64,000 nt of DNA, taken from assembly GCA_030704615.1 (NCBI GenBank), contig CM060733.1, forward strand, positions 72,168,001 to 72,232,000. The letters are read 5' to 3'. This DNA is from Takakia lepidozioides (taxonomy: Eukaryota; Plantae; Bryophyta). A model generated the notes under the pieces. The model did not search any database. It saw only the letters and a program-made list of their open reading frames with translations, and was not told the origin of the DNA. The position numbers and the translations under genes were made by a program. Positions 3,765 to 64,000 of this stretch are shown in pieces; the stretch's first letter is position 1, and every line of letters begins with the position of its first letter.

Positions 3765-5066
3765 ATATGAATCGAGAGGGCAATCGAGGTCGATGCACGC
3801 GAGATCCCACCGCTGCTGCATCCAATAGCACTGCCAATCCAATCCAAGACCGCACCTGATGCACACTGGCCATAACCCTGGCCCAAAAATCCCCCATAAG
3901 AGGAACATTCTCCAAGATATAGCCTAGAGGTTGTACTTGTCTCGTCTGCAAGTCCCGCAACACTCGCAACATCTCCCAAAACAAATGCGATCATGCATCA
4001 TCCAAGCCATTCCCATGACCTGCGGGAGAGTGTCCTTGGCAAGGCCATCCGGCTATCACCAAATCAATGGCACCATGCCGGTCCAAATCATCCGCCCCTA
4101 GCAAGGTAATGTCTGCTGGCAAGGCCTTTTGATACCCTTGAATTGCTGAGAGAGACAACAACTCAGGATACCGGTGTGTGAGCAAGGCGATGTGGCGCAT
4201 AGAAATACGCCGAGCTATCTCATCCTTCTCCACATACAAGTACTTGTGTACTTTAATCCCTGCTTGCAATAATCCTGCAAGCCCAGTGCTCATGCCCCCA
4301 AACAGGTCTAGTAAACAAATCCCTAAGTCAGGTGGTTGCCAGATGATGGGCACCGTGTCCAAAGGAGCTAACTCAGGAGGTCCAGGTGATGTCACTGAAC
4401 TCCCCTCACTCACCAATGGAAAGGCCTCCTGCCATGCTTGGTGCACACACTCGTCTGCTACTCGATGCAAATTCCTAACCGTACCACACAGTGAAATATG
4501 CACAGGCACATGAGGAAGCAAATCAGCCTTGTATGCCAATTGTTTGTCCTCATCAGGTGATGGCCTATCATCTGCATGGCTATTGCCCTCCAAGAGCTCA
4601 CCACCCCAAGCCACCACCCCTGAGAATGCAGCCAATGTGAGCATCATGTTCCTATGATCCACCACTACATTCCCAATAAACCGCACTGGGAGCAGTGCAC
4701 GTCGGCCATCTCCTGACTGCCATTCCGGCCTGTAGGATGCCGGTTCCTCCCAAAAGTTCAGAGTGAATCCCATAGGGTATAACACCGCCCCACCAACAAG
4801 CACATCATAACAATGACTTTAGCTCTCATGACTGAGCCGTCCGTAGGATGATCCGGCTGCAATCGAATGAAGAGCTCATGGCGTGTAATCCCTCGTGCCT
4901 TCTCTAAACCTCCCAAAGATGTTTGAATTTGGAAAGGGCAAGGCTCTAAATCCGCCTCTGTAAGGCCCAAGCTTGCAATTGATGTTCTTCCCAACATCAA
5001 TGGCTGTGCTCCCGAGTCCAACAAGACCCGCAGTGGCCTATACCTCCTCCCGGCTGGGCCACCCAA
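3765..5066 (-). pseudogene. Aspartic protease + C5 DNA methyltransferase (motifs I-VIII) of copy 1, frameshifted and truncated
   Basis: ORFs 4758-5066 (DSG protease), 3991-4803 (motifs I-IV with catalytic PCQ) and 3646-3984 (ENV, RxR). Confidence 0.85.
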
Positions 5067-5833
5067 CTGGCAGCTATACTCTGTGAGAGTAGTGATGCAT
5101 CGGCACTATCTGCGGGGATAGCGGATAAGGTGCAATGCATAAATGCCCTGGATTCAAGGGTCAAGACTCAACAGTCTTTCACATTGGCTGAGACAGTGCC
5201 AACTACGCCATCGATGGTACCCGCTCGCCCAAGTGTGTCAGAGGTAGAGCCACGAGTACCAGTGGGGAGAGTTGGTGTGGCTCGGGAAATGCCAGTGGGT
5301 GATGCTGCAAAGCAAGGTACAGCTAGTACATTGTTGGGGGCGGCTACGGCAATTTGCCAAGCTCCATTGTTTTCTACCACGACAATTGCAATGTCGGGGA
5401 TGTGGCCAGCTGCAGTGTTTAGACTGAAACACACCATCCTGATTGTCCACCATGACTACCCCAGGAGTCACCATACTACGCTCAATGGCTGGCCTAGCTG
5501 GCAACTCCTGCAACCTTGCAGCTGCCGATTGCCATGGCGCAACTGTCGACTTGCTTCCCCCCTTTATGGATCAGAATCCACATCTGCTCCTCTTGGCTCA
5601 GGAGCACGCGTTGCTGCTCGAGTGATAGCAGCTGCAGAGTCCACATGCAATGGTCTTGTAAGTGCGGCTCCACACATGAAGCCCATACCAATCTGGTCTT
5701 CCCTAGGTATAAGAGGTTGTGCAGGTGGGGCTTGAACCTCAGGCTTTGGAGCTGGTGCAACATGAGTAGTGGCCATGGTAGCAAGACGTTGCTCTAGCTG
5801 GGCAAGCCTATCCACCATGCCTTGGTCATGACC

Positions 5834-7192
5834 TTAACCTTGACCTTGTGCTCCTTGGTTTTGGTTACGACCTCCACCGCGACCTTTGCCTCCTCTACCT
5901 CTCTGGACTACATTGCCTCGTCCTCGGCCACCATTGTTCCCTTGGAACTGGCTTGGCCGTAGCTCAAGATGCAAGTCATAACAATGGGCCTCTTCATGCC
6001 CAAACTTGCCACAATGCCCACACTGTAGTTGTGTAGGCTGTGCCTGTGCCGGCCCTTTGCCTTTCTCCGGGCAATCTCTCTTAACATGGGGTCCTCCACA
6101 ATCCCAACATGTCACACCCGACTGTTGTTGGCCTGAGAATGAAGGAATTGACCTGTGCAATTGAGATCCTCTCTGTCCTTCCCTAGGCTTCACTTGAGCC
6201 ACCTTGTTGCCTTGAGCACGTTGGGGTAGTGGTTGTTGTTGGCTAGGAGTCCCACTTCGTTGTGTCTCCTTACCAAACCCCACCATGACCACTCGCTCCT
6301 CCATTATATTGAATTCTATCCGCTCTGCCAGCAAAAACACATTTGTTAAGGTGGGTTGGTCCACGTGTAGGAGAGTTGCATCCCGCACCCTTCTCCTTAG
6401 CTCCTTGTCCAATATCCCATACCAGAATTGGACTGCTTGAGCTTCCGTAACCCCTTGGGTCACATTTATCAATCGCCTCATGCGCGTGTAAGCCTCCATC
6501 AAACTCTCAGTAGGCCTCCGCTGGAACTCTTGCAAGCTCCGCAACTTCTCCGTCCTTATCCCTTGGTAGTTTCTCCTCAACTCCTCGAAAAACTCCACAA
6601 CTGGGTTAAAGGCAGGTACGGGTGCTGGTGTTGCAGCAGGAGCTTGAATGGATTTCCCAGCTCCATCTTTACTTGTCCCACTACTAGTGCTTGCAGTTGG
6701 GGATGTTGGTGTAGCTGCTGGTGCCGCCACTGCCCTTGTGCCTCTAGTGATAGAGATATAGTCGGGTGACCAATATTGTCGCCACTCCTCAATCTCCACC
6801 TCATTTCCCCGCCTAAACTCATGATAGTCATCGTCAAGGTGCTGAAACAGCCCCTTCCATGCCATAAAAGGCGTAAACAGTTGTGGATTGCGCATCTGCT
6901 GCAAATCACACCAACTATCAAACTCATGTATGAAATCATCAAGCTCGATGGTGCCCACAACTCCCGAGTACCGACGTGGCCCCTTGGTAGCTCCATACAT
7001 TTCCTCCATCGTATCCCACAACAATGGCACGGATATCGTTTGCACCCTCGGCGAGAATCCTCCTAACTCTGAGTCTGAACCTTCATTAGAAGACACTGAA
7101 GGTGAAGGTGGCTTAAACCGCACACCTCGTCTTGTATACCCACTAGTATCGCTGGTGCTCGTGCCGGCACTCTCCTCAGCAACTGGTGGCAC
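5834..7192 (-). pseudogene. gag: Gag of retrotransposon copy 1 (two zinc knuckles)
   Basis: 452-aa ORF with CX2CX3HX4C and CX2CX4HX4C knuckles and an RGG-rich tail. Its TAA is in frame with downstream MVDRLAQLEQRL and sits in a QG repeat, so it is probably a CAA>TAA mutation. Confidence 0.85.
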
Positions 7193-7916
7193 CTCCGTGA
7201 TGAAAACTCACACTCAAACCGACTATCAACCTGTCTCTTAGCCCCTTTCCACAAGGTAACCGGGTAGAGAACCTGTTGCGGCTTATGGTTTGGAATACTA
7301 GGTTCCTATTCTGAACCTGCACCTGCACCTGCATCCACCACAGGCACTCCTATGGTCTACTAGTCATCAACCCAGCCTCACCATAAGAGAAACAATGATG
7401 GTCTGCTGGTCATCACCCTAGCCTCACCACTGACAGCACGCTCTAGGATTGGCCGGCCACAATATTTCCGGCACTACCACCTATAAAAGCAAGCGCCCAA
7501 ACCAAACTAGCATGGCGCACAGTCAAGCATGCATGTGTGGGAAGAGGATCCAAACACAGGAAACTCAAACAACAACACCTCCCACAGCTTAAATCAATCG
7601 ATCTCCTTGCGGCTTCAATAAACCTGCAAGATGGCCAAGTCTCTATCCAAACTAGCCCTGCCTCCGCTTACGGAAAAGCTTTGGCCTACAAGAATGATGG
7701 AAGACTATAGAGAAGGGAAGCTAAAGCAATCTATAAGCCCAGAATGCTCTCATCCCATTACTCCTCATATCTTCACACTCACTCTTGCTCAAGCAATAGA
7801 TAAAACTATCCTTAAAGAACCTCTCAAATAACTCTCAAGAGCCCTCAAATTATTGCCATGAACTTCTGAAATCTGCCCTCAATCAGCCCCTCACATCCAG
7901 TGACGATGAAGACTGT

Positions 7917-22670: not shown

Positions 22671-22934
22671 AACGACTTCAAGCCCAACAGGGAAACAAAC
22701 CCTACAAAAATGCCACGGGCTTCCATTACCTGACCCTTCACTTTCAGATTAATGTGACCTCCCCCCTCCAAAGGCTTCTTCTCCTCCTCGTTGTGAATTC
22801 CTCCTGCATGTTGGTGCTATCCCTCCACACCAGCCATGATTCCAGCAACCACACCTAGCGCACAAAGGCAGACACGCACAGAGACACGCAAACACAAACG
22901 AAGACAGCGAGCGAGAAAGAAGCAGCGAGTGACA

Positions 22935-25775: not shown

Positions 25776-25799
25776 CCTTTCAACAATACACAGATGCAG

Positions 25800-26040
25800 A
25801 TAGGAAAATGAGCTTGTAATTGCCCGATGTGTAGGCGCCTGAGGACAATATTCATTTTCTGTTACACTGTCCAGGATATTCTCACCAGAGAGTGACTCTT
25901 TTCAGGAACATCAAGAACATTGTCCCTGCACCTCTGTTCACCAACTTTGAAATTTTTCAGGCTGAGCCTAAAGCCGTGGCTGTGTTGGGGTCTAATTGCC
26001 GGGCAGCTGGTCACCAACATCAGGTTGATGCAGTGTGAAG
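25800..26040 (+). mobile_element. 3' fragment of a non-LTR retrotransposon (RTE/RTEX-like C-terminal Cys/His region)
   Basis: Translation ...EDNIHFLLHCPGYSHQR matches the ED..HFLL.CP.Y...R motif. Confidence 0.45.
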
Positions 26041-39028: not shown

Positions 39029-39570
39029 CTACTCTCTACGAACAAATCTTGTTGGATGATAACGGATGGTTGTGTGACCAGCATTTGGCGGCCGGGATGC
39101 AAATACTATTTGATCATGAACTGGAAACACAAAACTACCAGCAACATGCGTAGTCGACTTTACTGGGCAGAACGAAATACACCAAGAAATGTCTGCAGCA
39201 CGTGTTCGTGAACAACAACCATTGGTTTTTAACCATGATAAACCCGAACGGAACGAATCATCAATGTATGGTGTTTGATTCCAGCATGCCCGCGGATAAG
39301 AAGCTACTGAGCGAAATAGAACAACATCTAAAAAAGTTAATCCCAGTTCCACAATTCAATTATTTCTATGCTGATGTCATGCAACAAAGTGACAGTTCAT
39401 CCTGTGGCGTATTTGCGATAACTTATGCCACGGATATAGCATTCGGATTAGATCCCGCAGATTCCCAATACGCAACATCTGCCATGAGAACCCACTTGAG
39501 AGATTGCATAAACGATCGAAGAATTGATCCATTTCCAAAACAACATTCACAATACGAAGACCCGATATGA
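39029..39570 (+). pseudogene. Ulp1/SENP (C48)-like protease domain, transposon-associated, one frameshift
   Basis: GWLCDQHLAAGMQIL in the upstream frame, then NNNHW (His), VFDS (Asp) and QQSDSSSCGVFAI (Gln, Cys): the full catalytic set. Confidence 0.8.
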
Positions 39571-40492: not shown

Positions 40493-40680
40493 TGTCGTGC
40501 GCATACATATCGCTACACAACTACATCGCTGTCCAAAACCACACAACACATGTGCACACCACACACTAGTATACCACTAGTCTACCACTAGTCCAGCCAC
40601 TAGTCCAACCACTAGGCTACAACTAGTCAGTCACTAGGCTGCCACTACGCTGCCCACTATGGCAGTCACTAGTCCACACA
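40493..40680 (-). repeat. Terminal repeat A, outer copy (188 bp; 3' end of the element)
   Basis: Identical by eye to 41011-41198; rich in ccactag(t/g) sub-repeats. Confidence 0.95.
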
Positions 40681-40681
40681 A

Positions 40682-41008
40682 TGATAAAGAGGAAGAATAC
40701 AAGCACAAGCTCATGCGAGCTCACAAAGCTGAAGCATAAACTCATGCATATATAACCTCATCACTCAAATACAAGTCAAGCCAAGTGCACCCCACGCCAC
40801 GGGGAATCCACACTATGGCGCCATAGCTAGGCGCGGTGAGGCTCAACTCGAGAAAGATGAGCCTCCCGCGCTTGCCGTGAAGATAACCACTCCAGGGCCT
40901 AAATCTGCCTTGACCCCTGGATTGACACTTGGGCCAATCCCAAATGTCAATATGTAAAAGCTAGCTATTTCCTAGCTAGTTTCACACTAGTGGTAAAATA
41001 ACTTGACA
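40682..41008 (-). repeat. Terminal repeat B, inner copy (327 bp)
   Basis: Matches 50438-50764, with three transitions found by eye. Confidence 0.95.
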
Positions 41009-41010
41009 GC

Positions 41011-41198
41011 TGTCGTGCGCATACATATCGCTACACAACTACATCGCTGTCCAAAACCACACAACACATGTGCACACCACACACTAGTATACCACTAGTC
41101 TACCACTAGTCCAGCCACTAGTCCAACCACTAGGCTACAACTAGTCAGTCACTAGGCTGCCACTACGCTGCCCACTATGGCAGTCACTAGTCCACACA
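41011..41198 (-). repeat. Terminal repeat A, inner copy (188 bp; follows the PPT)
   Basis: On the minus strand it starts TGTGTGG, 2 nt after the PPT, and ends CACGACA. Confidence 0.95.
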
Positions 41199-41200
41199 AT

Positions 41201-41210
41201 CGCCCCCCTA
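41201..41210 (-). promoter_or_regulatory. Polypurine tract (plus-strand primer)
   Basis: Minus strand reads TAGGGGGGCG-AT-TGTG, directly before the U3-like repeat A. Confidence 0.8.
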
Positions 41211-41458
41211 GCTGGTGCTTAGGTCCCTCTAAGTCCAGGTAGCCACAAGATGTGATAGTGACCATAGCCTCACTAAGTCTTCCACCACTATCCCTACTAC
41301 ACTCAAACTCGATAGATCAAGAGGCCGGGTGCAAGAGTTGCCCCATCGTTAGTTGCCGTCTTGCAACCTATGAACTTGAGCTTGGGATCTCATGTATTGA
41401 CTCCTATGAGCTTGGCCTCCCATGTCTTGTTAGCTGCCTCCAGTCATGTCCACTGCCA

Positions 41459-44400
41459 CTATCCCAAGCAGTGTGGACACAACCAATCTCCGTCAGGAAC
41501 CTTCTCAAGAGGTGGTGTCAAGCATCCCATATGCCAACCCCTTGAGCATCGATCACACACCAGCATGGTGGCTGCCCCTTTGGCAGACCCACAGAGCATG
41601 CACCTCAAACCTGCAGGTACCACTGCCAAGTTTGGGTCAACTCTGCCATCGACATTGGGAAGGTGACATGGCGCACAATTACGCACATGGTCCTTCCAAG
41701 TCATGCCATCCCGACCCTCCAAGATCAGGACCCCTGAGGGCAACACCTCTCGAACCCTCAGAATAACACGCCCTGCAGTAACATCCAGAGTCGTAGGAGC
41801 AGTCTGCTGCAAATAAACATAGTCACCAGGGCTAAACCTCCGAACCCCAGGACGATATCCTCCACCACGTATAGTGGCATACCTCAACGTATCACGGTGC
41901 TGTGCAATGGCAAGGTTCTCAAAAGCCATGGGCATGACTTTCTTGAACAACTCTGCACGCTGATCACATGCACGTACCCACACGTCCGGATCGTCAAGGT
42001 TAAGGACTTGAGCAGTGTCCCTACGAATGGCTGCAGGCAAATCCGGCTCTCGGCCAAAGAGAAGGAAATATGGTGAGAAGGAGGCAAGTGATGCTTGTTT
42101 GCTGAACCTGTAGCCCATGGCTAACCAAGGAACCTGAAGATCCCAATCTCCTAGGTGTCCCTTCTGCAAGCCATACTTGCGCAAACCCCTCTTCACCGTC
42201 TGAACAACTCTCTCTGCTAAGCCATCGGCCTCAGGATGATCCCGAGAAGTGGTGCGGTGGTCTATCAAGGCTTTATCACACAAAGCCTGAAACTCCCCCA
42301 AGAACTCTCTCCCTTGGTCCGTGAGTACCTCAGCTGGAGCACCAAATCGGCTAAGCACACGATCCAAGAATGCATACGCAGCCCCCTCACTAGCCTTTGT
42401 CAGGCAATGGAACCAACTCAATCCACTTGGAGAAGTGCTCCACCATCACCAACACATATCTGTGGTGGCGCATAGTCAGTGGCAACGGTCCTGCGAAGTC
42501 AAGACTCCACCTGTAGCCTAATCCCATGATAGGTAAAGGATGCAACTGTGGTGTAGGGGCGTTGAATGAAGCACGCACCCTGTCACACACCATGCACCTA
42601 GCCACAAACTGTTGCACCTCTGTATGCATACCACGCCACCAATACTGCCCCTGCAGTAAACTGTGAGTGCGTCGCACTCCAAAATGCCCCAACTCCTCAT
42701 GGGCATGCCGCACTAACCGTGCACGCTGTGTGGGGTGAGGCACAATCCTCACCCGACCATCCTCCCACACTCGAAGTAGGTGTATCCCCTCCCACTTGAA
42801 CCTCTTGGCTCGTTGCAGGATCCGATCCCTCTCCCTGGCAGTCACAATGGCTGCCGTGTCTCCCGTGCGGAGGTAGTCCAACACAGCCGAATCCTCATGT
42901 ATATCTCTGGCACCACCTAGCTCATCACTAGCCTCAGGGTCCTCAGACACTCCGTCTACAGTCATCCCTGTTGTAGGTCCAATCTGACCTCCCGATGCCA
43001 AGATACACAAAAATGCAGATGCGTGCCATCCCGACACCATCTCCTTGTCCGTCTCACCATGCCACCAAGCTCCAGTGTCATCCTGCTGGCTCATGCATGG
43101 ATTGCGACTCAATCCATCCGCATCCTGATTGACCAAACCCGGTCGATGCACAACCTGAAAGTCATACTCCTGGAGTATAAGTGCCCACCGTGCAAGCTTC
43201 CCCGTAAGCTTGTCTGACTCCATCAACCACTTGAGTGGCTGGTGATCCGTGACAAGGGTGAAAAGATTGCCGTATAGATAGCACCTGAAGTGTGCCACGG
43301 CCCACACTGCAGCTAAGCACTCTCCCTCATATGAGCTGTACTTAGCCTCTGCAGCGTTGTTCGAGCGGCTAGCGTAAGCCACTACGAACTCTCTTCCCTC
43401 ATCATCCACCTGTGTGAGCACCGCTCCAAGCCCCAGCATGCTCCAATCCGTATGCAGCTGAAAGGGACGCCCCCTGATAGGTCGTCTCAAGATAGGCGCC
43501 GAGGTCAACCTCGCCTTGAGCTCTTGAAAAGCTCGTTCCTGCTCATCTTCCCACTGCCACTCCTGGTCCACCTTGGTCAGCTTGGTTAGAGCCTTTGCAA
43601 TGGTACTAAATCCCTTGACAAACCGTCTATAATAGTTTGCCAACCCCATGAAAGCTCGAACTCGGCTCACATCCGTGGGGCGTGGAATTTGTGCAATGGC
43701 CTCTACCTTAGTCTGCTGTACCCCCAATCCTCCAGGATATATCATGTGACCCAGATACTCAATCTGGTTGTGGAAAAACTTGCACTTCCCCGGATGCAAC
43801 TTCAATCCGTGCGCTCTCAAGCGCTCCAATACCACCTGAAGGTGTCTCTCATGCTCCTCCATCGTAACACTAAAGATGATGATGTCATCTATGTAGCACC
43901 GAGCAAAGTCCACCCCTGCTAGAATCCTATCCATGACTCTCTGAAACTCTGCAGGAGCATTCTTAAGCCCAAATGGTAAGAACCGCCACTGATATAGGCA
44001 ATCCTTGCCGTGCTCATTGATCCCCCAGAATGCCGTCTTCTGCTTGTCCGCCTCCTTGATTGGCAACTGGTGATATCCGGATCGTAAATCCAAAGTGCTA
44101 AAGGCCTTAGCATGCCCGATGGCATCAAAGATCTCCTCTGGTGTTGGCATGGCATACTTATCGGACTTGGTCTGACGATTTACAGGCCGGTAATCACCGC
44201 ACATACGTCTCTCCGTCCAATTGCCATAGACATCCTTCTTGGCTGGCATCACTGTGGCTGAAGCATACTCTCCACCAGAGAGCTCCACCAAACCTGCCTC
44301 CGAGAGATCTTGAGTCCTCATCTGAATCAAAGACCTCTCCATGTCACTGTATCTATAGGGTCTCCGAAAGATTGGCGTGTCAGTGGCCAACTCAATACGG

Positions 44401-44594
44401 ATCTCTTGACCCTTCAGTGCTCCCAAGTCCTTCAAACTGAAGGCAAAGCAATTCATGTAAGCCCTCAGGAACCGCCGTATACGTCGTCTCTCTCCTCCGG
44501 TGACAATGGGTCCAATGTCAGGCTCCCAATTGTCCTCCGTAACTACAACCTTAAGTCCAGTGGGCTTAGAGGTAGAGGACGCGTCCCGTGGTTG
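41459..44594 (-). CDS. pol: Pol: reverse transcriptase - RNase H - integrase (HHCC + DDE) - C-terminal PHD finger; one 1-nt frameshift at ~42397
   Basis: RMCGDYRPVN, LDLRSGYHQ, LPFGLKNAP, YIDDIII (RT); LHTDWS, YEGECLA, TDHQPL (RH); HEELGHFG...CMVC; SLDF, TDQGREF, GLAERVVQ (IN); CMLC...LVCDRCSRGWHMGCLTPPLEKVPDGDWLCPHC (C4HC3 PHD). Confidence 0.95.
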
Positions 44595-47500
44595 CTATGC
44601 TGCAACCTCTTGAGCAGTACTCCCTACCTGCTCAGTCAATGACAAGGCATCATCCTGCCCCATCATCTCATCCTTGAGGACCTCCTCAACTCGAGAAGAA
44701 TCCCCAACCTCATCCATCACAGCCGCCTTGGCTGCCAACTCCCTCTGAACCTCGAGCACCTCCCACGTGTGCCATGGATGCATGCACCCCGTGGTCCTCA
44801 TATGCTCGCCCCCACTCACTGCCTGTACCGTCTCGGTAGGCAGAGAGACCATTGAGGGAAGTGTATTCCGCACTCTGCGTTGCTCAGCTAGAGCCAAGCT
44901 GATAATCCAGGTCAAGCAATTGAGATCCATTGCTTGCCCCAACACTTGACGACGTGATGCCTCAGAAAGAGACGACACCGCCGTGGTACCAGTGGTAAAA
45001 CCCATTGCCCGCTCACGCTCGTCAGCATTAGGCTCCACTAACTGCTGCAACTGAGCATCCCACAGGAGGCCAGGTCCACTATCCGGAAAGCATGCGATCC
45101 TGGGAAGCTGAGCAGTGTAGGTAATGCTGCTCGTGGTTGACCCACCTTGTTGACCACTGCCAAAGGCGAACGGTCATCGTGTCTCACACGTTGAGACTGC
45201 CTCCCTGTGTCCAGAATGTTATCCACTGTGAGATGTGCTGGCCGCTGCACCCCATCAAATGCACGCTTGAGCAGTGCGGGTGGCATCATGTTAGTCCACC
45301 ATAGCCGTGGACGATGAGCCCGTGACCCCACTGTAGCTGCATCCAGCAACACTGCTGACCCAAGCCACGACCGGACTTGATGCACACTGGCCATCACCCT
45401 GGCCCGAGAATCGCCCATCAGTGGCACATTCTCCAAGATGTATGCTGGAGATACAGCTTGATGAAGCTGCAAGTGGCGCAAAACCCGCACCATCTCCCAA
45501 AACAGACCCGACCTCGAGTCTCGCAATCCATTGCCATGCCCGGCTGATGAATGCCCTTGGCAGGGCCAACCTGCCACTACCAGATCAATGGAGCCAACCC
45601 GCTCCAAATCCTGCGCCCCCAGCAACGAAATGTCTGCTGGCAAGGCCTGCTGATATCCACGAATTGCAGACACCGACAACAACTCAGGGTACCGCTGCAC
45701 CAACTGAGCAACATGGCGAAGTGAAACGCGTCGTGCAGTAGTCTCATCCCTCTCCACATACAGGTAACGCCGAACTCGTACACCTGCCTGTAACACAGCA
45801 GCCAATCCGGTGCTGATCCCGCCAAACAAGTCCAGAAGACAAATGCCTTCATCCGGAGACTGCCACACAATAGGTGTGGTGTCCAATGGAGACAATTGAG
45901 GTGGTCCTGGTGCAATCCCCACACTCTCCTCCTCTCCTGACGGTACAAAAGCCTCCACCCAGGCTTGTTGCACCCGTCGATCAGCATCCCGCTGCAAATC
46001 CTTGCTCGTGCCCCACAATGGAGTCTGAGCAACCATGGTAGGCAACTCCGCCATACCATACATGTCATCCTGCTCTCCCGGAGGTGGTACATCCTCTGAA
46101 TGAGCATTGCCCTCAAGCAACTCTCTAGGCCAACTCACTGCCGCTGTGAATGCTGCTAGTGTCGGCATCTTGCCTCGCTGGGCAACCGCAACTCCTCCTA
46201 TGAACGTCACAGGGAGCTGCACACGCCGGCCCTCCCCTGACTGCCATGCAGGCCTATAGGAAGCTGACTCCTCCCAAAAATCCAGGGTGAAGCCCATGGG
46301 GTACAACACTGCCCCACCAACCAGGACATCGTATGAGACTGCGTCTGTCACAATGGCCTTGGCTCGCATCACTGAGCCATCTGTAGGGTGATCCGGCCGT
46401 AGTCTGATAGCCAACTCACGCCGTGTCATGCCCCGAGCCTGCTCCGATCCTCCCAGAGACGTCTGTATCTGGAAAGGACAAGGCTCCATATCCGCCTCCG
46501 TGAGGCCCAAGCCTGCAATAGCAGCTCTGCCCAGCATCAGTGGCTGAGCTCCCGAGTCCAACAAGACTCGCAGTGGCCGGTACCTCTTGCCTGCCGGTCC
46601 ACTCAAACAGAAAATGCCATCCTGGTTGTCTAACATGACAACTCCAGGTGTCACCATGGCGCGCTCAATGGCTGGCCTAGCTGGCAGCTCCATCAACCTG
46701 GCAGCTGCAGCTTGCCATGGCGCCGCCGTGGCAGTCTTGACCCTCAAATCCGAGGATCCCTCCGGCACTACACCTCCCACTATCTCCGCAGAAGATGAAG
46801 TAACCTCCCCACTCTCACAGAGTGTAGCTGCCAGCCTGAACACCTCAGCTGGTCTTACCCCCGGCGTCGCAATCATGGTAGCCGAGAACAATGGAGCCTG
46901 GCACACAGATGTGGCCGCTCCTAATAGCACACTAGCTGCCGTAGCCTTGGCAACACTAGGTAGTGGTGCTGCCCGTGTAGCTCTCCCCAATGGCATAGTA
47001 ACCTCCGCCTCGGTAATAGTCGGGCGAGAACTAGGTGCCATGGGTGGCGTCGACACTGTCTCCGCCAATGTGAATGACTGAGGAAGCCTAGCCTGACGGC
47101 TTGCCTCCCCACGCTGTGGATCCAACTCCACCTCTGCACCCCGTGGCTCAGGAACTCGTGCTGCTCCTCGAGTCACGGCTGCAGCAGACTCCACCTGCAC
47201 TAGTGGTAGTGCTGCTCCACACATGAATCCCATGCCTCCCATATCTCCTCCCTCAGGAGCAGGAGGTGGACCATCCGGCCTTAGAGCCGGTACCACCTGA
47301 GCTGTAGCCATGGCAGCGAGCCTCTGCTCTAGCTGCTGAAGCCGGTTGGCCATGCCTTGGTCAACACCCTGACCTCCGTGTCCTTGGCCACGTTGAGCTT
47401 GCCCTTGGCCTGCACCTCGTGGCTGGCCACCTCGTCCTCTCTGGCTGCTCCACCTCGCCCCCGGCCACCATTGTTCCCTTGAAACTGGCCTGGGCGCAAC

Positions 47501-48768
47501 TCAGGATGCAAACTATAACACTGGGCCTCTCCATGCCCGTGCTTGCCACAATGCCCACACTGCAACTGTGCAGGCTGTGCATGTGCCGACCCTTTGCCTC
47601 CCTCTGGGCAATCCTTCTTGACATGGGGTCCTCCACATGTCCAGCACACCACATCCGCCCGTTGTTGGCCAGCAAATGAAGGGAGAGACCCCTGCATTTG
47701 AGGTCCTCTCTGCCCTTCCCTGAGCTTCACCTGAGCCCCCTTGTTGCCTTGAGCACGTTGAGGTAGTGGTTGGCTAGGAGCACCACTACCCCGTGGTGTC
47801 TCCTTAGCAAATCCCACCATGACCACTCGTTCCTCCACCATGTTGAGCTCTATCCGCTCTGCCAGCAAAAACACATTTGCTAAGGTGGGTTGGGCCGCTT
47901 GTAGGAGAGTTGCATCCCGCACCCTTCTCCTCAGCTCCTTGTCCAATATCCCATACCAGAATTGGACTGCCTGAGCTTCCGTAACCCCTTGGGTTACATT
48001 TATCAAGCGCCTCATGCGAGTGAAAGCCTCCCTCAAGCTCTCGGTTGGCTTCCGTTGGAACTCTTGCAAGCTCCGCAACTTCTCTGTCCTCACCCCTTGG
48101 TAGTTCCCTCTCAACTCTTCGAAGAACTCCACAACAGGGTTGAAGGCAGGCACGGGTGCTAGTGCTGGTGCGGTAGTGGCTTGGGTGGACGTCGTAGCTA
48201 CTGTACCACCAGTCCCACTGCTGCTTGCTGAAGCTGCCGGTGCAGCGGCAGGTGTAGCCACTGCCCTCGTGGCTCTAGTGCCCCTAGTGATGGAGACATA
48301 GTCGGTGACCAGTACATCCTCCACTCCTCAATCTCAACCTCATGCCCCCGCCTGAACTCATGGTAATCATCCATAGGCGGCCCCTCAAGGTGCTGAAACA
48401 GCCCTTTCCATGCCATGAACGGCGTAAATAGTTGTGGATTGCGCATTTGCTGCAAATCACACCAACTATCAAACTCTTGGATAAAATCATCCAACTCAAT
48501 GGTGCCCCACCGCCCCAGAGTACCTTCGTGGCCCCTTGGTAGCTCCATACATCTCCTCCATTGTGTCCCACAATAATGGCAAAGAAACAACTTGCACCGC
48601 CGGTATGAGCCTTCCTGATTCACAATCCGAATCAGAACCTTCCGTGGAAGACACAGGAGGTGAAGGTGGCCTAAACCGCACACCTCGTCTCGTGTACCCA
48701 CTAGTATCGCTAGTGCTCGAACCGGCACTGTCCCCAGCAACTAGTGGCACCTCCGTGTTGACACTCAA
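44595..48768 (-). CDS. Gag - aspartic protease - C5 cytosine methyltransferase polyprotein (reconstructed across four 1-nt indels; true start uncertain)
   Basis: ORF pieces 48496-48768, 48198-48740, 47329-48324, 45038-47353 and 44595-45050 are colinear with copies 1 and 3. Two zinc knuckles, LLDSGAQP, DNMT motifs I-X. Confidence 0.88.
44900..45845 (-). CDS. DNMT3-like DNA (cytosine-5)-methyltransferase domain inside the retrotransposon polyprotein
   Basis: Motif I LDLFGGISTG, II YVERD, III ADIS, IV AGWPCQGHS, V SGLFWE, VI YILENV, VIII RAHRPRLWWTNM, IX ERERAMGF, X RRQVLGQAMD, in canonical non-permuted order. Confidence 0.93.
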
Positions 48769-49019
48769 CCGGTCATGAACATGTCCCTAACCCCCTCTCC
48801 ACAAGGTAACCGGGTAGAGAACCTGTTGCGGCTTATGGTTTGGAATACTAAGTTCCTAACATAGCCTACACCTGAACTTGCATGACCATGGGAATATCAT
48901 GAAGATACTCCTCAAACCGCCCTCCACAAGCTTCAAAATTCGGCCTTCCAGACCACATGCCAGTCCTTAGTCCACCAGTGCCTCCACGAGTCAGCACAGG
49001 CCATCCACAGGTCAACACG

Positions 49020-49751
49020 GGCCACCACAGACCAGCACAGGCCCACACAGCTCACTGGTCACAGCCGTCACAGCCGTCAGGCCAATGGGCACAGCCTGTC
49101 ACAGCCCCTCACAGCTCGTCACAACCTCAAAGGCCTCAGGCACAGCCTGTCACAGCCCCTCACAGCCCGTCACAGCCCCAAAGGCCTCAGGCGCGGCCTG
49201 TCACAGCCCCTCACAGCCCGTCACAGCCCCAAACGCCATGGCACGGCCTGTCACAGCCCCTCACAGCCCGTCACAGCCTCAAAGGCCTCAGGCACGGCCT
49301 GTCACAGCCCATCACAGCCCCAAAGGCCTCAGGCACGGCCTGTCACAGCCCCTCACAGCCCGTCACAGCCCCAAAGGCCTCAGGCGCGGCCTGTCACAGC
49401 CCCTCACAGCCCGTCACAGCCCCAAAGGCCATGGGCACGGCCTGTCACAGCCCTCACAGCCCGTCACCAGCCGCAAAGGCCTCAGGCACGGCCTGTCACA
49501 GCCCCTCACAGCCCATCACAGCCCCAAGGCCATGGGCACAGCCTGTCACAGCCCGTCACAGCCCCACAGGCCTCAGGGCACAGCCTGTCACAGCCCCGCA
49601 CAGCCCCACAGGGCACAGGGCAAAGCCTGTCACAGCCCATCACAGCCCATCACAGCCTCAAAGGCCTCAGGCACGGCCTGTCACAGCCCCTCACAGCCCA
49701 TCACAGCCCCAAAGGCCATGGGCACAGCCTGTCACAGCCCGTCACAGCCCC
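49020..49751. repeat. Tandem array of (t)cacagccc units with a ~50-bp higher-order repeat, in the element's 5' leader
   Basis: aaaggcctcaggcacggcctgtcacagcccctcacagcccgtcacagcccc is repeated more than ten times, with variants. Confidence 0.95.
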
Positions 49752-50421
49752 CTATCTTGGCTCCTTGGCTCCTTGATGCTCTCTAAGACAAGACTAAGCA
49801 CTCCATAGCCTTTGCCAAGCTCCTGAAACCCTAAGGCTTACATTTCCAGCCACAAGACACTTCTCTTGTGGTGCAAGAGCTCTTCTTCCAAGCTCTGTAA
49901 CCCTAGGTGCACATTCCATGGCCTTGCCGCACCTCTTAGCTCCTGTTCCAGCCCTGCTCTCGCCATGACAAGAGCCCTCTCAATGCTGAAGCTCGAGATT
50001 GAAACCCAATCTCACCATACTCCACAAAGTGCACTGATTTGCCCCAAGCCAAATCAGCCCTTTCGCTTGGTCTTGCAATCCTTCACACAATGACAGCTCG
50101 CATTCCCAAGTCCAGTTCTCAGCTTTGCCACCAAAGCCACTATAACCTGCTCTTGACTAGTCCTCTTCCCAATCGTGCTTGCTCATGCATGTACACAATC
50201 TGAAACCATCAAGGTGCTCTGGAATTACCTACAGTATGGTGCTTTCATCTCTGAAGCTGAAGATCGAATGCCAAGGTTTACCACCTCGTAACCCACATCG
50301 CCTCCGCTTCTAACAACCAAGAGCTCCACGGTGCTCCTTGCATAACAACTTGGTTTCTCTCATTCTCAAGCAAAAACCACAAGTGCTACAACTAACTCGT
50401 ATCTAGCACTCATAGATACGA

Positions 50422-50438
50422 GCTCATCTTTCTCGAGT
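50422..50438 (-). promoter_or_regulatory. Primer-binding-site position, complementary to a sequence within repeat B (putative self-priming)
   Basis: gctcatctttctcgagt (50422-50438) is the exact reverse complement of actcgagaaagatgagc (50602-50618). There is no TGG tRNA-type PBS. Confidence 0.75.
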
Positions 50439-50764
50439 GATAAAGAGGAAGAATACAAACACAAGCTCATGCGAGCTCACAAAGCTGAAGCATAAACTCA
50501 TGCATATATAACCTCATCACTCAAATACAAGTCAAGCCAAGTGCACCCCACGCCATGGGGAATCCACACTACGGCGCCATAGCTAGGCGCGGTGAGGCTC
50601 AACTCGAGAAAGATGAGCCTCCCGCGCTTGCCGTGAAGATAACCACTCCAGGGCCTAAATCTGCCTTGACCCCTGGATTGACACTTGGGCCAATCCCAAA
50701 TGTCAATATGTAAAAGCTAGCTATTTCCTAGCTAGTTTCACACTAGTGGTAAAATAACTTGACA
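50438..50764 (-). repeat. Terminal repeat B, outer copy (327 bp; 5' end of the element)
   Basis: Minus strand TGTCAAG...TTTATCA, flanked externally by the AACT TSD. Confidence 0.95.
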
Positions 50765-52039: not shown

Positions 52040-52500
52040 ATGATCTGCCCTCATCGACATGTATTGTAAATGTGGCAGCATATATGTGCAAACAGAGTGT
52101 TTGAAAAAATGGCTACACAAAATGGTGTGTCATGGAGTGCAATGATTGTAGGATATGCCCAACATGGGTTTGGTAAGGAGGCTTTGGAGACCTATGAGAA
52201 AATGATACAAGAAGTGGTGACACCGGACCAAGTCACGTTCATCTGCATTGTCAGTGCCTGTGCAAGCCTGGCAGCCCTAGAGAAGGGCAAAGTTGTCCAT
52301 GCTGACATTATGAAAGCCAGAATTGTGACAGATATTGTTGTGGATACTGCCTTGGTTGACTTGTATGCCAAATGCAGCAACATACAGGATGCCCGTCGTG
52401 TGTTTGAGAATATGGCTCAACGTAGTGTGGTCTCATGGAACACAATGATCACAGGATATGCCCAGCATAGTGTGGTAGGGAGGCTTTGGAGATCTATGCG
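52040..52500 (+). pseudogene. Isolated PLS-PPR fragment
   Basis: VSWSAMIVGYAQHG...VTFICIVSACASLAALEKG...DLYAKCS; no start and no E/DYW domain. Confidence 0.85.
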
Positions 52501-54120
52501 CATAGGACTGCCATAACTCTCCCCTATAGATAATGATTCCCATTTACGAGATTGGACTCCACTCTAGCTGGTCGCAAACTCCAATGCAGCCTTGACATTC
52601 ACAGAGATCCTCCTTTCTGTTTGCTTAGAAATCTAGAATGACATGCGAGGCGGGTTTGAATATTTTGCTTCATATGCAAAATCCAAAATTTGCTAAGACA
52701 ACGCCACAGGTTGAATGCCCTTCTGCCAAAACACATTGATAGTCAGACCAGACTTGATGGATAAAATGGACACTAGCTCCCCTGAATCAGCTGATGCATG
52801 GAAACATGCTTATCTGAAATGAATTGCCATCACAACGGATGCGGTAGTCTTGAGACCCAGGCAAATCCGGTGACCATATGAGTGTGGAACTTCTAAAGCC
52901 CTATAACAACCACTCCCAAAGAAGAGAACAAGCTTTATGCCAGCTGGTCACAAACCCGAGAGTGATAGAGAGTGGCGAATTGGGTTCCTGTACGTGTATT
53001 CATTTCGAGTTTGGGTAGTGAAAAACCACTCCAACCAACTGGTGATATCTCTACTTGCAAATGGAAATGGAACAAAAGCCTTCTGAACCCAAAACCCCAT
53101 ATTGAAAGGGATGCACATGAACATGCCAATGAAAGCAGTCTAAGACGCAATTGAAGTGTATGGGTTGCAGGGTGTCTTACCTACCGACAACATTATCTGG
53201 CCAACAATACTAGAGCTGCCACATACTTCTCTTACTAGATTGTTACACATTGTTCGTGTCATCTCTTCTCCTCCATGACAAGCTAAGATTTAACTGGTGG
53301 ATGCTCCATAGCCCGAGTACTTGGTAATGGGGTACTACCTCCTGGTCTTACATTCTTTGGGAAGAAGTGACAGCATATCCAAAAACTTCTCCTCTCAAAG
53401 CAAGTCCAAATTCTGCTGCAGCAGTCCAGTCAATGTTTCAAACACAAGCAACTTCGGCGCTGAGAAGTTTAGGGGCGACTCCAAAATTCTTACAGGGAAT
53501 CAAGTGACTTTTCAGGCAGGGGGCCTTTTGGGAAAGGAAAAGATGTATCAGGTGTTTCATTTCCAAGACAGGGTGTTGATATTGGCCCCTTCATGAGGAG
53601 GGGAAGGGGTTTTATTGGGGGACGAGACTGCGTTTGTGGTCCCTTAATTTCAGGTGGCTGGAGGGGGTTTATGAGTTTGGATCAGGGTTTAAATGTACTG
53701 AAAGACAGTGTTGATATCAAGGATGAGAGCTTCATGGCAAATTGCAAGGCTTTGGTGGAACATTGACTTACATTGACTAGGGATCGTTCAAATGGATGCA
53801 CATGTATCTCCGCTTGAAGACGTTTTTTTTTTTTTTTTTAAATTTAGATGTTTCAAGTTGGAGGGTAGCAATTTTGCACATATATTCTCAGGTCAATTAA
53901 AAAATTAAACTTTCATTCAAGCGAGGTTTACCTACCCGACGTGAATGCCATTGGCCTAAATAATAGCCCTTATCCCAGGAACATGTCTCTACCCACAGAT
54001 GTGGTCAAGAGTAAGTGAACTTATTTGGAGGACTGTCTTTCATATGAATGCGTGTGTTTGGCTTTACTTGTAGATGTCCATAATAGCTACTGTGACTGAC
54101 AGAAGTCAATGGACTTGGTT

Positions 54121-55719
54121 GGGCTTCCAATTGTCCTCCGTAACTGCAACCTTAAGTCCAGTGGGCTTAGAGGTAGAGGACGCGTCCAGCGGTTGCTATG
54201 TTGCAACCTCTTGAGCAGTACTTCCTGCCTGCTCAGTCAATGACAAGGCCTCATCCTGCCCCGTCATCTCATCCTCGAGGACTTCCTCAACCCAAGAAAA
54301 ATCCCCAACCTCATCCATCACCGCCGCCTTGGCTGCCTGCAACTCCCTCTGAACCTTGAGCACCTCCCACGTGCGCCATGGATGTCTGCACCCCGTGGTC
54401 CTCACCGGCTCGCCCCCACTCACTGCCTGTACCATCTCGGTAGGCAGAGAGACCATCAAGGGAAGTGCATTCTGCACTCTACGTTGCTCAGCCGTAGCCA
54501 AGCTGATAATCCAGGTCAAGCAATTGAGATCCATTGCTTGCCCCAACACCTGACGACGTGATGCCTCAGAAAGAGATGGCACCGCCGTGGTCCCAGTGGA
54601 AAAACCCATAGCCCGCTCGTGCTCGTCAGCATTAGGCTCTATTTACTGCTGCAACTGAGCATCCCACAGGAGGCCAGGTCCACTATCCCGGAAAGCATGC
54701 AATCCTAGAAAGCTGAGCAGTGTAGGTAGTGTTGCTCCTGGTCGACCCACCTTGTTGACCACTGCCAAAGGCGAACGGTCATCGTGTCTCACACGCTAAG
54801 ACTGCCTCCCTGTGTCCAAAATGCTATCCACTGTGAGGTGTGCTGGCCGCTGCACCCCATCAAATGCACGCTTGAGCAGTGCAGGTGGCATCAAGTTAGT
54901 CCACCATAGCCGTGGGCGATGAGCCCGTGACCCCACTGCAGCTGCATCCAGCAACACTGCTGACCCAAGCCACGACCGGACTTGATGCACACTGGCTATC
55001 ACCCTGGCCCGAGAATCGCCCATCAGTGGCACATTCTCCAAAATGTATGCCGGAGATATAGCTTGATGAAGCTGTAAGTGGCACAAAACTCGCATCATCT
55101 CCCAAAACAGACCCGACCTCGAGTCTCGCAATCCATTGTCATGCCTAGCTGAGAAATGCCTTTGGCAAAGCCAACTTGCCACTACCAAGTGGATGGAGCC
55201 AACCCGCTCCAAATCTTGCGCCCCCAGCAAAGAAATGTGTGCTGGTAATGTCTGCTGGTATCCACGAACTGCAGACACCAACAACAACTCAGGGTACTGC
55301 TGTACCAACTGGGCAACATGGCATAGGAAGATGCGTCGTGCAGTCTCATCCCTCTCCAAATACAAGTAACGCCGAACTCATACACCTGCCTGTAGCACAG
55401 CAGCCAATCCGGTGCTGATCCCGGCCAAACAAGTTGAGAAGACAAATGCCTTCATCCGGATACTGCCACACAATCGGTGTGGTATCCAATGGTGACAACT
55501 AAGGTGGTCCTGGTATAATTCCCGCACTCTCCTCCTCTCCTGATGGTACAAAAGCCTCTACCCAGGCTTGTTGCACCCGCCGAAAAGCAACCCGTTGCAA
55601 ATCTTTGCTCGTGCCCCACAGTGGGGTGTGAGCAATCATGACAGGCAATTCCGCCGTGCCATGCATGTCATCATGCTCTGCTGCAGGTGGCACATCCTCT
55701 CTATGGGCATTGCCCTCCA
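54121..55719 (-). mobile_element. Degenerate copy 3 of the DNMT retrotransposon, downstream part (DNMT and TAG region)
   Basis: Colinear with 44520-46115. Catalytic motif decayed to ASWLCQRH; truncated before RT. Confidence 0.92.
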
Positions 55720-56325
55720 CAACGACGCAATGGCGTGAGCGCGCGAGCGTACGCTCACGCCAGCTGACGTGGCGTGAGCCTACACACACGCTGACGTGGC
55801 GTGAGCGTCATGTCAGCATGTTGATGTGGCGGTAAATGATGACGTGGCACTATCCGTCATCTGCCACGTTAGCATTAACATGCGCCGCCTATAACCGTGG
55901 ATGGTCCTATGACCGTGGAATTAATGCAGGGAATCTTGCCTAAATAGAATCAAGACAAGCGTTGAGGCCTACAATTGCAGCATCCAACATTGTGCAATTA
56001 CAAATGCTTGTTTCACTTTTACAATTACGAGGACGAAAAAATATCCTCACAAAGTGTGCGCCATAAAGGCTGCCACGGGAAGACCTTCCTCCCTCCTCAA
56101 ATAACAATGAGAGTTAGGATCATCTTCAAAAGATGATTGTAGTGCATAGCGATAGCAAGACATGTAGACTTCAAACGGTGCAATGACAAATATGCACTAC
56201 CTAAAAGTTGTCACTCAGAGCTCACTCCGTATAGTTGGAGGCCATATCATTGCACCGCCGACGAATTGATGTGAATTACACATTTCAAATCATGGTCATC
56301 CACATACCACATTGCATAGTTGATG

Positions 56326-58830: not shown

Positions 58831-59599
58831 CTGATGTCTCCAGAACACAGTTGAAGAATGAGCAGAGAATATGGCGGAGAAAGCTCAGACAACGACTGTG
58901 CATATTATGTTATTCTTTCCAGATATGCAGCCGTCCATTTTAATTACTTTTCTTGTGGGCCCAGTGGTCAGAGTATCCCTAGGAGCAGTGTCGGCAGTTA
59001 AAAAACCGTTAACCGAACTCATCAATAAACCCAATAACAAAGCCGACTTCCTGGAAGCATGCCACATGATCTGAGGATGGGATTGCAGATTAAGTAAATG
59101 TATCTTTATACTACTACCATGATCATGCGCACCTGGAAAGTTCCAAATGCGAAACGAATGTGGGGTGGCTAACAAGGATGACCGTGTTATGATATTCCAA
59201 GATTTGTCATCAAACTCTCGTTCATTTACATTTATTTGTGTAAGACTGTGTGCCAAGATTTCTGGTTCGCTGTTATTTTTAAATATTGAAACCGTTCTAA
59301 TAAAGAACACCGCCGTTTATTTTGGGCGACACACGTCAGACATCCATAACTGAATACGAACACTGTACACCAATTGCTGGCATGTGCACTAATAGGGAAC
59401 GACTATGTGTAACGGTCACGCGAGAGGGAATCCATATTTCTAGAGACAACGCAAGAACGCAGGCAATCCCGCAAGAAATCGGGAGTCCTGCGTTTTTCTA
59501 CTTTTCGCGCGCTTAGAGAGAGAGTGGTAGTCAAGCTGAGAGGGTTCCTTCTACAATACGAAGAGAAGAAAGTCTCTTTATTTTACTTCCCTTAGAGAG

Positions 59600-62338: not shown

Positions 62339-63316
62339 GTTGGAGGAGAGTGGGCCATGATGCAAGTTGTGTACAGGTGCAATGTCATACTTGAAACTCT
62401 ACTGCTTTTTTTGGGAAAAAATGTGGCTTCATAAGGATTGCAATCATAGATCCAGATTGAATGTCGTTGACAACATTCACTTCTTTGTCTGAGTCATTCT
62501 TAAGCGAGTATATGAATTCACCTGGTTAGGATCTAAGGGTGTAATTATAGTGTCCCTGATTAGAATTGATAATGTCCTTGAATGGCGTTGATGACATTCA
62601 CATCCGGAGTTGTTGAGAGGTCCTCAGAGTTATGTAAATTTTTGTAATGTCCATAGAGGTTACAGTGAGGGTTCCTCACTTCATATTGCTGAACGTCAAT
62701 GCAGACATTCAGTTATTCTGCATTGTTTTTGCCTCTTGCGAGGAATCTGGAGGCTTGATAAGCTCTGTTATGAGAAATCCAAAGTGAATGTCGTTGACGA
62801 CATTCACTTCTGTGTCTGTATTATTCAACAGCGACAATTTGAATTTACATGGATTGGGAGCTAAGTAATTGGTTCCTTGTTGGTATTGTTGTGAATGGCG
62901 TTGACGCCATTCACATACAGTGTTGTTGTGAGGTCCTCAGTGATATGTTCGTTATGAATGTGCATTGAGTTTTCCTGGAGGGTTCCTTACTCGAGTTTAT
63001 GATTTCCATCTTGTGATTTTGCTTCATTTGAGGAATAATTAGGCTTGATTAGTGAATGTCCATCCCTCATTCATCCTTCTACATTCATTTTTCACACTCA
63101 TCCATATGTTTATCATCCAACTGTACATTCATCCATCCTTTATTCAATGCCTTTTATTATGTCGTCCAGCTTGTTTCCGCGGTTAAGGGTGCCAATCCGC
63201 GGGAATACACTCCACTTCTTTCTGGGCGCGTGGTAACGCGGCCTTCATGTGTGATGACATGGAGTGAGCCCCGTGACGTGGCATTTGCACAAGGTGACGT
63301 GGCGTGAGCGCAGTTG

Positions 63317-64000
63317 TGCTCCCTCCAACAGCTCTCCAGGCCAACTCACTGCAGGTGAATGCTGCTAGTGTCGGCATCTTGCCCCGCTGGACAACCACAA
63401 CTCCCCCAATGAATATCACAGGGAGCTACACACGCCGGCCCTCCCCTAACTGCCATCCAGGCCTATAGGAGGCTGTCTCCTCCCAAAAATCCAGGGTGAA
63501 GCCCATGGGGTACAACACTGCCCTACCAACTATGACATCGTAAGAGACCGCATCTGTCACAATGGCCTTGGCTCTCATCACTGAGCCATCTGTTGGATGA
63601 TCCGGCTGTAGTCTGATAGCCAACTCATGCCGTGTCATGCCCCGAGCCTGCTCCGATCCTCCCATTGACGTCTGTATATGGAAAGGACAAGGCTCCATGT
63701 CCGCCTCCGTGAGGCCCAAGCTTGCATGCAGCTCTGCCCATCATCAGTGGCTGAGCTCCCGAGTCCAACAAGACTCGCAGTGGCTGGTATCTCTTGCATG
63801 CCGGTCCACTCAAATAGAAGATGTCATCCTGGTTGTCTAACATGACAACTTCAGGTGTCACCATGGCGCGCTCAATGGCTGGCCTAGCTGGCAGCTCCGC
63901 CAACCCGGCAGCTGCAGCTTGCCATGGCGCCGCCGTGGCAGTCTTGACCCTCAAATCCAAGGATCCCTTCGGCACTACACCTCCCACTATCTCCGCAGAA
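63317..64000 (-). mobile_element. Degenerate copy 3 of the DNMT retrotransposon, upstream part (protease); runs off the window
   Basis: LRVLLDSGAQP...DAVSYDVIVG; colinear with 46110-46793. Confidence 0.92.

Follow-up and report, generated by a model that had tools for sequence, protein, structure and literature searches.

We analyzed a 64,000-nucleotide stretch of Takakia lepidozioides DNA (assembly GCA_030704615.1, contig CM060733.1, positions 72,168,001 to 72,232,000; hereafter the window), which contains three copies of a retrotransposon encoding a DNMT3-like C5-cytosine methyltransferase (DNMT) domain. Copy 2 is a full-length Ty3/gypsy element. We interpret it as a defunct member of an old green-plant Ty3/gypsy lineage. 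In this reading, the lineage carries the methyltransferase and a PHD finger, has permuted long terminal repeats (LTRs), likely integrates through a two-LTR circle, and likely methylates its own new DNA; we assign the reading as a whole a probability of about 0.55. The presence of a non-permuted DNMT3-like domain, under purifying selection, in a gypsy element of a land plant is well supported. An initial annotation of the window had noted the domain, but not the readthrough-type stop codon, the PHD finger on the integrase, the self-priming primer-binding site (PBS), or the permuted LTR layout. The element and the domain are located as follows (all positions are those of the window).

40493..50764, minus strand: copy 2, full-length Ty3/gypsy element with TG...CA ends and a 4-bp target duplication (AGTT)
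44900..45844, minus strand: DNMT3-like C5-cytosine methyltransferase domain of copy 2; motifs I-VIII in the protease frame, motifs IX-X past a frameshift

The methyltransferase domain

The PF00145 profile matched the domain of copy 2 with an E value of 1.4e-12 (48 bits against a cut-off of 22), a match that the initial annotation had anticipated. Motifs I (DLFGG, 45832-45818), IV (WPCQ, 45568-45557), VI (ENVP, 45433-45422), and VIII (HRPR, 45316-45305) were found on the minus strand in the protease frame. Motifs IX (45020-44997) and X (44942-44922) lie in a different frame because of a frameshift near 45083. Therefore, the earlier claim of a full motif set in frame with the protease holds for the first four motifs, but not for the last two. 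The order I, IV, VI, VIII, IX, X is canonical, broken by the frameshift in copy 2 and intact in relatives, and the circular permutation of DRM-type enzymes was not found in it. The canonical order and DNMT3A as the best solved match agree with the DNMT3-like, non-DRM domain originally proposed.

Among solved structures, the single domain matched DNMT3A (E 2e-9), HhaI (4e-4), and DRM (1e-3), and a 22-sequence family profile matched DNMT3A (E 2e-20), DRM (4e-10), and HhaI (1e-6). The predicted model of an uninterrupted relative, L001, had a predicted local distance difference test score (pLDDT) of 91 (L-numbers denote loci from a metagenome scan, of which the best 80 of 119 were used). All of the matches listed by Foldseek for this model were DNMT3A/B/C, with DNMT3B/3A at the top (TM score of about 0.72). 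By profile and fold, the closest affinity of the domain is to DNMT3A/B, ahead of DRM, DNMT2, and bacterial enzymes.

A comparison of nonsynonymous and synonymous substitutions (dN/dS, codon counting) among the copies, as had been proposed, gave 0.13 for copy 2 versus copy 1 (95% bootstrap interval 0.08-0.19, 177 codons), well under 1, and 0.35 for copy 2 versus the decayed copy 3. The DNMT ratios were 0.11-0.13 among L025, L027, and L028, and 1.08 between two dead near-copies, L005 and L002; many deeper pairs were saturated. The reverse transcriptase (RT) was under tighter constraint (0.05, L025/L028). Among 278 full family domains, the EN motif was kept in 261, RxR in 264, and the S-adenosylmethionine-binding FxG in 259.

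Anatomy and class of copy 2

The coding region and leader of copy 2 contain the following features.

49088..49750, no strand assigned: 51-bp unit repeated in tandem 13.6 times within the 5' leader
47332..48740, minus strand: gag; Retrotrans_gag E 0.0025, under the Pfam cut-off; two CCHC knuckles at 47646-47608 and 47559-47518
46100..46700, minus strand: aspartic protease; LLDSGAQ (DSG motif) at 46564-46544; Asp_protease_2 E 0.035 (1.6e-4 in the relative L025)
42393..44594, minus strand: RT (YIDD at 43895-43884), RNase H, integrase zinc finger, and start of the integrase core (Pfam)
41462..42445, minus strand: integrase core and C-terminus, with a terminal PHD finger at 41602-41468 (PF00628, E 4.8e-11)
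near 48500, 48300, 47440, 45083, and 42397, minus strand: frameshifts in the coding region

The gag-protease-RT-RNase H-integrase order, the DDE integrase, the TG...CA ends, and the short target duplication place copy 2 in Ty3/gypsy, and the best solved-structure match of L025 was Ty3 Gag-Pol (E 4e-98). Copy 2 lacks the two complete identical terminal LTRs of this class; its repeats are instead split in the layout A-coding-B-A-B. No DIRS-type tyrosine recombinase was found among the open reading frames scanned, which encode an rve integrase instead. At the C-terminus of the integrase, where chromoviruses such as Tcn1 and Chlamyvir have a chromodomain, no chromodomain match was obtained and a PHD finger was present instead.

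The spacing of the integrase was D(34)E in 130 of 135 parsed family sequences, one residue shorter than the usual D(35)E. The solved fingers nearest to the PHD of copy 2 were those of CHD4, KDM5B/5A PHD1, PHF12, ATXR5, and BHC80, and a tryptophan two places before the histidine was absent from 138 of 139 PHD fingers of the family. The CHD4, KDM5 PHD1, PHF12, ATXR5, and BHC80 fingers are readers of the unmodified H3 tail, similar to the ADD domain of DNMT3. No Rfam match was obtained over the element, and the window contained no tRNA genes. Contig depth over the element, including the DNMT, was 13,000-47,000 versus 36 in a flank bin (run X1), a contrast that is not a copy number and points to a high-copy family.

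A conserved stop codon between DNMT and RT

44589..44597, minus strand: conserved in-frame stop in the context TAG CAA CCA (UAG-CAR-YYA readthrough signal); TAG at 44597-44595

The domain lies between the protease and RT, as initially annotated; however, it is not continuous with RT because copies 2 and 3 have an in-frame TAG (44597-44595 in copy 2), approximately 110 codons past motif X in both. We considered this stop as damage and rejected this explanation because a stop occurs at the matching place in 24/24 loci with a DNMT tail and RT (16 TAG, 8 TAA), which makes it a family feature. CAR directly follows the stop in 23 of these loci, and the full CAR YYA context is present in L001, L025, L027, L028, and copy 2. 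UAG CAR YYA is described as the readthrough consensus of tobacco mosaic virus (PMC2754532). Copy 2 has the in-frame UAG, the following CAR YYA, and an open frame downstream. L025 contains a single stop in 2180 codons from gag to PHD, and L028 a single stop in 1741 codons; in L001 and L025, there is no in-frame ATG from the stop to RT. The stop very probably acts as a readthrough signal separating Gag-protease-DNMT from RT-RNase H-integrase-PHD. Since the DNMT is upstream of the stop, it would be made with Gag, in excess over RT and integrase.

Permuted terminal repeats

50438..50764, minus strand: repeat A1, 327 bp; putative second LTR half (end of U3, R, and U5); 3 mismatches to A2
50602..50618, minus strand: self-primer site inside A1, 17/17 complementary to the PBS; putative transcript 5' end
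50422..50438, minus strand: PBS immediately following A1, without likeness to a tRNA and complementary to the self-primer site
41200..41214, minus strand: polypurine tract (PPT)-like sequence adjoining B1; kept in relatives
41011..41200, minus strand: repeat B1, 190 bp; putative first part of U3; identical to B2
41005..41014, no strand assigned: palindrome GACA-GC-TGTC at the B1/A2 border; putative integrase cutting site inside the LTR
40683..41008, minus strand: repeat A2
40493..40682, minus strand: repeat B2; the A2/B2 border is the putative end-to-end cDNA joint

Copy 2 has the layout A1-coding-B1-GC-A2-B2, with 3/326 differences between A1 and A2 and none between B1 and B2. The full A-coding-B-A-B layout was also present in L020, and 4-bp target duplications were found for copy 2, L020, and L014. 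The A-PBS and PPT-B borders occurred in contigs of four runs (three samples), with single flank joints at 41008 and 41011. Extra letters at the A2/B2 border were only present in L014/L015.

The PBS and self-primer site pair at 17/17 positions in both copy 2 and L020, and the 17-mers of the two elements differ at 9 places, indicating compensatory changes. Shuffled sequences reached at most 12 matches in 2000, and the fold z was -7.5. The pairing was seen in these two elements; the 5' ends are missing in L025, L028, and most algal-type loci.

The palindrome was detected in 14/80 loci (611 kb; 13 exact and 1 variant), always downstream of the PHD and in both domain orders described below; 20 shuffles gave 0-2 occurrences each. 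Many of the loci do not extend that far, and L053, L062, and L064 are close kin. In 13 of the 14 junctions, a C directly precedes GACA and forms a CpG beside the palindrome.

B-GC-A is placed like an ordinary LTR because the PPT precedes B1 and the PBS follows A1. From the placement of the PPT, PBS, and palindrome, we infer that the integrated form corresponds to a two-LTR circle opened at the left-LTR palindrome. Integrases use CA-3' ends, and a palindrome cut with a 2-nt stagger would leave these.

Two sets of candidates were set aside. L012 and L013 end at B without A-B, which fits a one-LTR circle or equally a B1-B2 deletion, and were not counted as support. In tblastn comparisons, none of the 33 IMG/VR matches to the junction pattern showed a retroelement domain, and we regarded them as chance matches.

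We also noted that the repeats of copy 2 differ at only 3 of approximately 517 bases, suggesting a young insertion, yet the coding region has five frameshifts, which may be assembly errors or reflect a defective copy mobilized in trans. A 40-nt motif between the PHD stop and the PPT (41320-41360, minus strand) is a possible RNA element; it is kept in L005, L008, L012, L013, L019, L020, L025, and L028, the DNMTs of which are approximately 50% identical.

Proposed life cycle and alternatives

In the cycle that we propose, the RNA would start inside A1 and end inside A2. Most ribosomes would halt at the UAG and yield Gag-protease-DNMT, placing the enzyme in the particle at the level of the capsid protein, while readthrough, of which we are rather confident, would supply RT-RNase H-integrase-PHD. 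Self-primed reverse transcription would produce a normal cDNA with the LTR B-GC-A, and its ends would join at the A2/B2 border to form a circle. The integrase probably then cuts the left-LTR palindrome with a 2-nt stagger and CA-3' ends, such that insertion from the two-LTR circle results in A-coding-B-GC-A-B. Before insertion, the DNMT may methylate the cDNA or circle, probably at CG, so that it resembles host DNA; we consider the chances of this step to be even. More tentatively, the PHD may read the unmodified H3 tail and thereby pick silent chromatin.

Precedents for two of these steps have been described. The integrase of foamy virus cuts a palindromic two-LTR circle junction to produce processed ends (PMC1180852), as we propose for the Takakia element; however, the foamy virus palindrome is the LTR-LTR joint itself, whereas that of the Takakia element is inside the LTR, away from the putative joint. 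The Dnmt3 domains of Symbiodinium retrotransposons methylate CG in yeast (PMC5890265).

Several observations weigh against this scheme. The sequence CAA CCC ATG follows the stop in 19/24 loci, many of which are near-duplicates, and also allows re-initiation. Moreover, a Closterium-type clade has a continuous frame with no stop and lacks the PHD. None of the 8 distinct 5' ends was preceded by B; since a two-LTR circle carries two identical palindromes, the model needs an unexplained choice of site. End-joining might be expected to produce variation, yet no indel was present at the A2/B2 border in the 12 of 33 indel rows displayed, from contigs too short to reveal heterogeneity there. Motif IV was PC in 116/278 domains, EC in 120, and other or unparsed in 42, an unusual change beside the catalytic cysteine. 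The DNMT of the Klebsormidium gypsy element gave no methylation in yeast, a result that its authors call inconclusive (PMC5890265). Furthermore, the CpG observed/expected ratio in the element was 0.53, a depletion no stronger than that in neighboring pentatricopeptide repeat (PPR) genes (0.43 and 0.49). The C-to-T spectrum between copies 2 and 3 was 0.115 at CG, 0.059 at CHG, and 0.049 at CHH. The CpG depletion and this spectrum fit ordinary host methylation and do not separate self-methylation from host methylation.

The A-coding-B-A-B layout may instead have been made by template switches during reverse transcription, with no free circle and an integrase that processes ordinary linear ends. 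We give this explanation a minor but appreciable chance. It is consistent with the A2/B2 border, which looks exact in copy 2 and L020, and with the lack of B-first 5' ends, and the TG...CA ends and 4-bp duplications are expected of linear integration too. However, because the PPT and PBS flank B-GC-A like a normal LTR, ordinary priming puts B at the left end, and a B at the right end needs an end-to-end joint. The two extra bases, set inside a perfect palindrome, are moreover kept throughout the lineage. We prefer integration from a two-LTR circle.

The domain may instead be retained to bind DNA or to act as a decoy, with methyl transfer slight or absent, and could, for example, coat the cDNA or shield it from host enzymes. 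The ECQ found in place of PCQ in 120 domains and the inactivity of the Klebsormidium domain in yeast argue for this role, and the predicted capsid-level amounts would suit a stoichiometric function. Nevertheless, the family keeps the catalytic cysteine and, in the proportions given above, EN, RxR, and FxG, and we regard a decoy as rather unlikely. A chromosomal role for the enzyme, in which it would modify the target site or integrated copies as a PHD-guided and self-limiting silencing device, appears less likely still. The similarity of the PHD to H3-tail readers and the nearly uniform lack of the tryptophan suggest such guidance; however, the PHD is on the integrase, past the stop, and not on the DNMT, and the Closterium-type clade has the DNMT without a PHD. 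We still favor a role of the enzyme in methylating the cDNA or circle of the element itself, which was among the roles initially proposed and is plausible.

A more speculative form of the circle model, which we consider a long shot, is that the lineage integrates only via the circle and that the DNMT gates the cut: methylation of the adjacent CpG would protect the internal palindrome and leave the other to the integrase. The internal palindrome would need protection because every integrated element must keep that copy. If true, the integrase and the DNMT would resemble a restriction-modification pair within a eukaryotic retrotransposon, and the repeated capture of methylases by circle-integrating retroelements would be accounted for.

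Relatives and descent of the DNMT

Named relatives were found in Marchantia polymorpha (77% identity or less, over part of the domain), Calypogeia fissa (73%), two Sphagnum species, Closterium, Hariotina, and Haematococcus, together with many metagenome proteins. No seed-plant or Klebsormidium names were present among the matches of these word-limited protein searches, three of which brought up element domains alone. No relative of the DNMT domain was detected in IMG/VR, and the ESM Atlas only gave generic phage C5-methylase clusters. At E values up to 1e-30 to the family profile, there were 535 representatives (50% identity), some of which may be host or other enzymes.

The DNMT was located between the protease and RT (order A) in 44/278 domains, from bryophytes and Closterium, and between RNase H and the integrase (order B) in 188/278, from Hariotina and many metagenomes; the other 46 were unassigned. 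The domain seems to have moved once between the two positions.

The RT and DNMT trees were unrooted and built from 44 rows, all of element sequences: 5/9 order-A proteins (4 near-duplicates omitted), 30/105 order-B proteins (partly random), 8 loci, and copy 2. In both trees, a branch separated the 10 order-A rows from all others (support 100 for RT and 99 for DNMT), and the main subgroups were the same. In a Mantel test of DNMT versus RT, the count was 0/500 permutations. Copy 2 grouped with Marchantia P0031, L001, and L003, and its nearest named relatives were liverworts and mosses. On this phylogenetic evidence, the DNMT appears to have descended along with RT, not to have been freshly captured by the host, and the element to be part of an old green-plant lineage that ranges from chlorophytes to bryophytes.

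The initial annotation had proposed a related or independent capture. A relationship to charophyte elements is upheld, whereas an independent capture is not, since the DNMT tracks RT from bryophytes to chlorophytes and the repeat layout agrees with that published for KnitGypsy-Dnmt3. Independent uptake of a host DNMT3 by a gypsy element within this land-plant group, which the DNMT3-like nature of the domain and the occurrence of host DNMT3 genes in non-seed plants (as described in PMC6453930) might suggest, is highly improbable given that algal element domains are 35-53% identical to the query versus approximately 21% for DNMT3A, that the DNMT and RT trees agree, and that the palindrome is common to both domain orders.

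Comparison with known systems

Copy 2 most likely belongs to the lineage of KnitGypsy-Dnmt3 of Klebsormidium nitens (de Mendoza et al. 2018, PMC5890265), a likeness drawn from the published description and not from sequence. Both have gypsy domains with a non-permuted Dnmt3-like domain in the polyprotein, DIRS-type A-coding-B-A-B repeats, and purifying selection on the DNMT (Ka/Ks under 0.2 there and 0.13 here). In contrast, the Takakia element has a land-plant host, and its DNMT closes the Gag-protease-DNMT frame before the readthrough-type stop. An integrase PHD, a self-priming PBS, and an internal palindrome are not mentioned in the text of PMC5890265, which gives the DIRS-type structure of KnitGypsy-Dnmt3 without a mechanism. 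The same text regards the capture as an event of the K. nitens lineage alone, whereas the lineage described here would extend from chlorophytes to bryophytes.

SymbioDIRS-Dnmt3 is similar in that a Dnmt3 resides in a retroelement with A-coding-B-A-B repeats, and it is this enzyme's own de novo CG methylation that was shown in yeast; however, it is a DIRS element with a tyrosine recombinase, whereas the Takakia element has a DDE integrase and 4-bp target duplications (PMC5890265). The EpiLTRs of Euglena and Cymbomonas (bioRxiv 10.64898/2026.05.21.726589) are also LTR elements with a cytosine DNMT and a chromatin-reader domain. Their DNMT is sister to DNMT4 and accompanied by DAM and a chromodomain, and the authors set them apart from the streptophyte Gypsy-DNMT3 elements. 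The latter are repeated in PMC12344493, the available text of which names no land-plant elements. Tf1/Tcn1 chromoviruses have a self-priming PBS (PMC6317226), but no DNMT or split repeats appear in their description, and no chromodomain was found in the Takakia element. Chlamydomonas gypsy elements share a PHD finger (PMC9940879); their description likewise includes no DNMT or split repeats.

The available texts of PMC10952607, PMC6453930, PMC5784723, PMC8557442, PMC6673714, PMC9940879, and PMC2774666 do not mention a DNMT-bearing gypsy element in bryophytes. In the full-text literature searched, in which few subscription papers and neither Repbase nor theses were represented, neither the internal palindrome nor the readthrough stop was described, nor were members of the lineage from land plants or chlorophytes. 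Absent from this literature were three features of the element: the conserved stop in a readthrough context, the self-priming PBS with compensatory changes, and a layout that corresponds to a two-LTR circle opened at an LTR-internal palindrome. The lineage is most likely much wider than published, and the readthrough stop and the permuted LTR with its conserved palindrome add a testable model of replication.

The reason why retrotransposons carry DNA methyltransferases has been a standing question since 2018. Since the lineage occurs in Marchantia polymorpha, a genetic model with methylation mutants, this question is testable in a land plant. Moreover, the permuted LTR points to an integrase-using retroelement for which the normal route may be a circle, a form usually seen as a dead end. 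These elements account for many of the Marchantia gene models labeled as hypothetical or methyltransferase proteins, and they would likely escape LTR finders designed to detect two full LTRs.

Other copies and surrounding sequence

3785..7334, minus strand: copy 1, of a diverged subfamily (72-78% DNA identity); contains gag, protease, and DNMT and is truncated past motif VIII
54122..55717, minus strand: copy 3, DNMT part and conserved stop (TAG CAA CCG); 91% identical to copy 2; decayed
63321..64000, minus strand: copy 3, protease part, separated from the remainder by a 7.6-kb insertion and running off the window

Copy 1 keeps motifs I, IV, VI, and VIII, as originally stated, although it contains one stop and ends just past motif VIII at approximately 3785. 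The domain was confirmed in all three copies. However, the catalytic motifs were not uniformly retained: motif IV of copy 3 is LCQ instead of PCQ, copy 3 also has stops and a frameshift, and all three copies are broken.

The host had been described as a land plant with PLS-DYW genes, in accordance with the PLS-PPR repeats with E/E+ motifs and the DYW motifs near 12058-12245. A cluster of PLS-class PPR genes and fragments (8800-12250, 15377-18200, 22070-29400, and 52040-52510) shows a period of 303 bp, E/E+ motifs, and a single DYW end; several members appear to be broken or duplicated. The insertion that splits copy 3 (55718-63320) is bounded by short inverted ends (CACAAC...GTTGTG) and a 3-bp duplication (CTC), and it contains repeated subterminal motifs. 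It resembles a CACTA-type DNA transposon, although its open reading frames had no Pfam match. A Ulp1-type protease fragment (Peptidase_C48, E 6e-7) at 39154-39570 and 39257-39268, similar to 19312-19586, probably derives from a DNA transposon.

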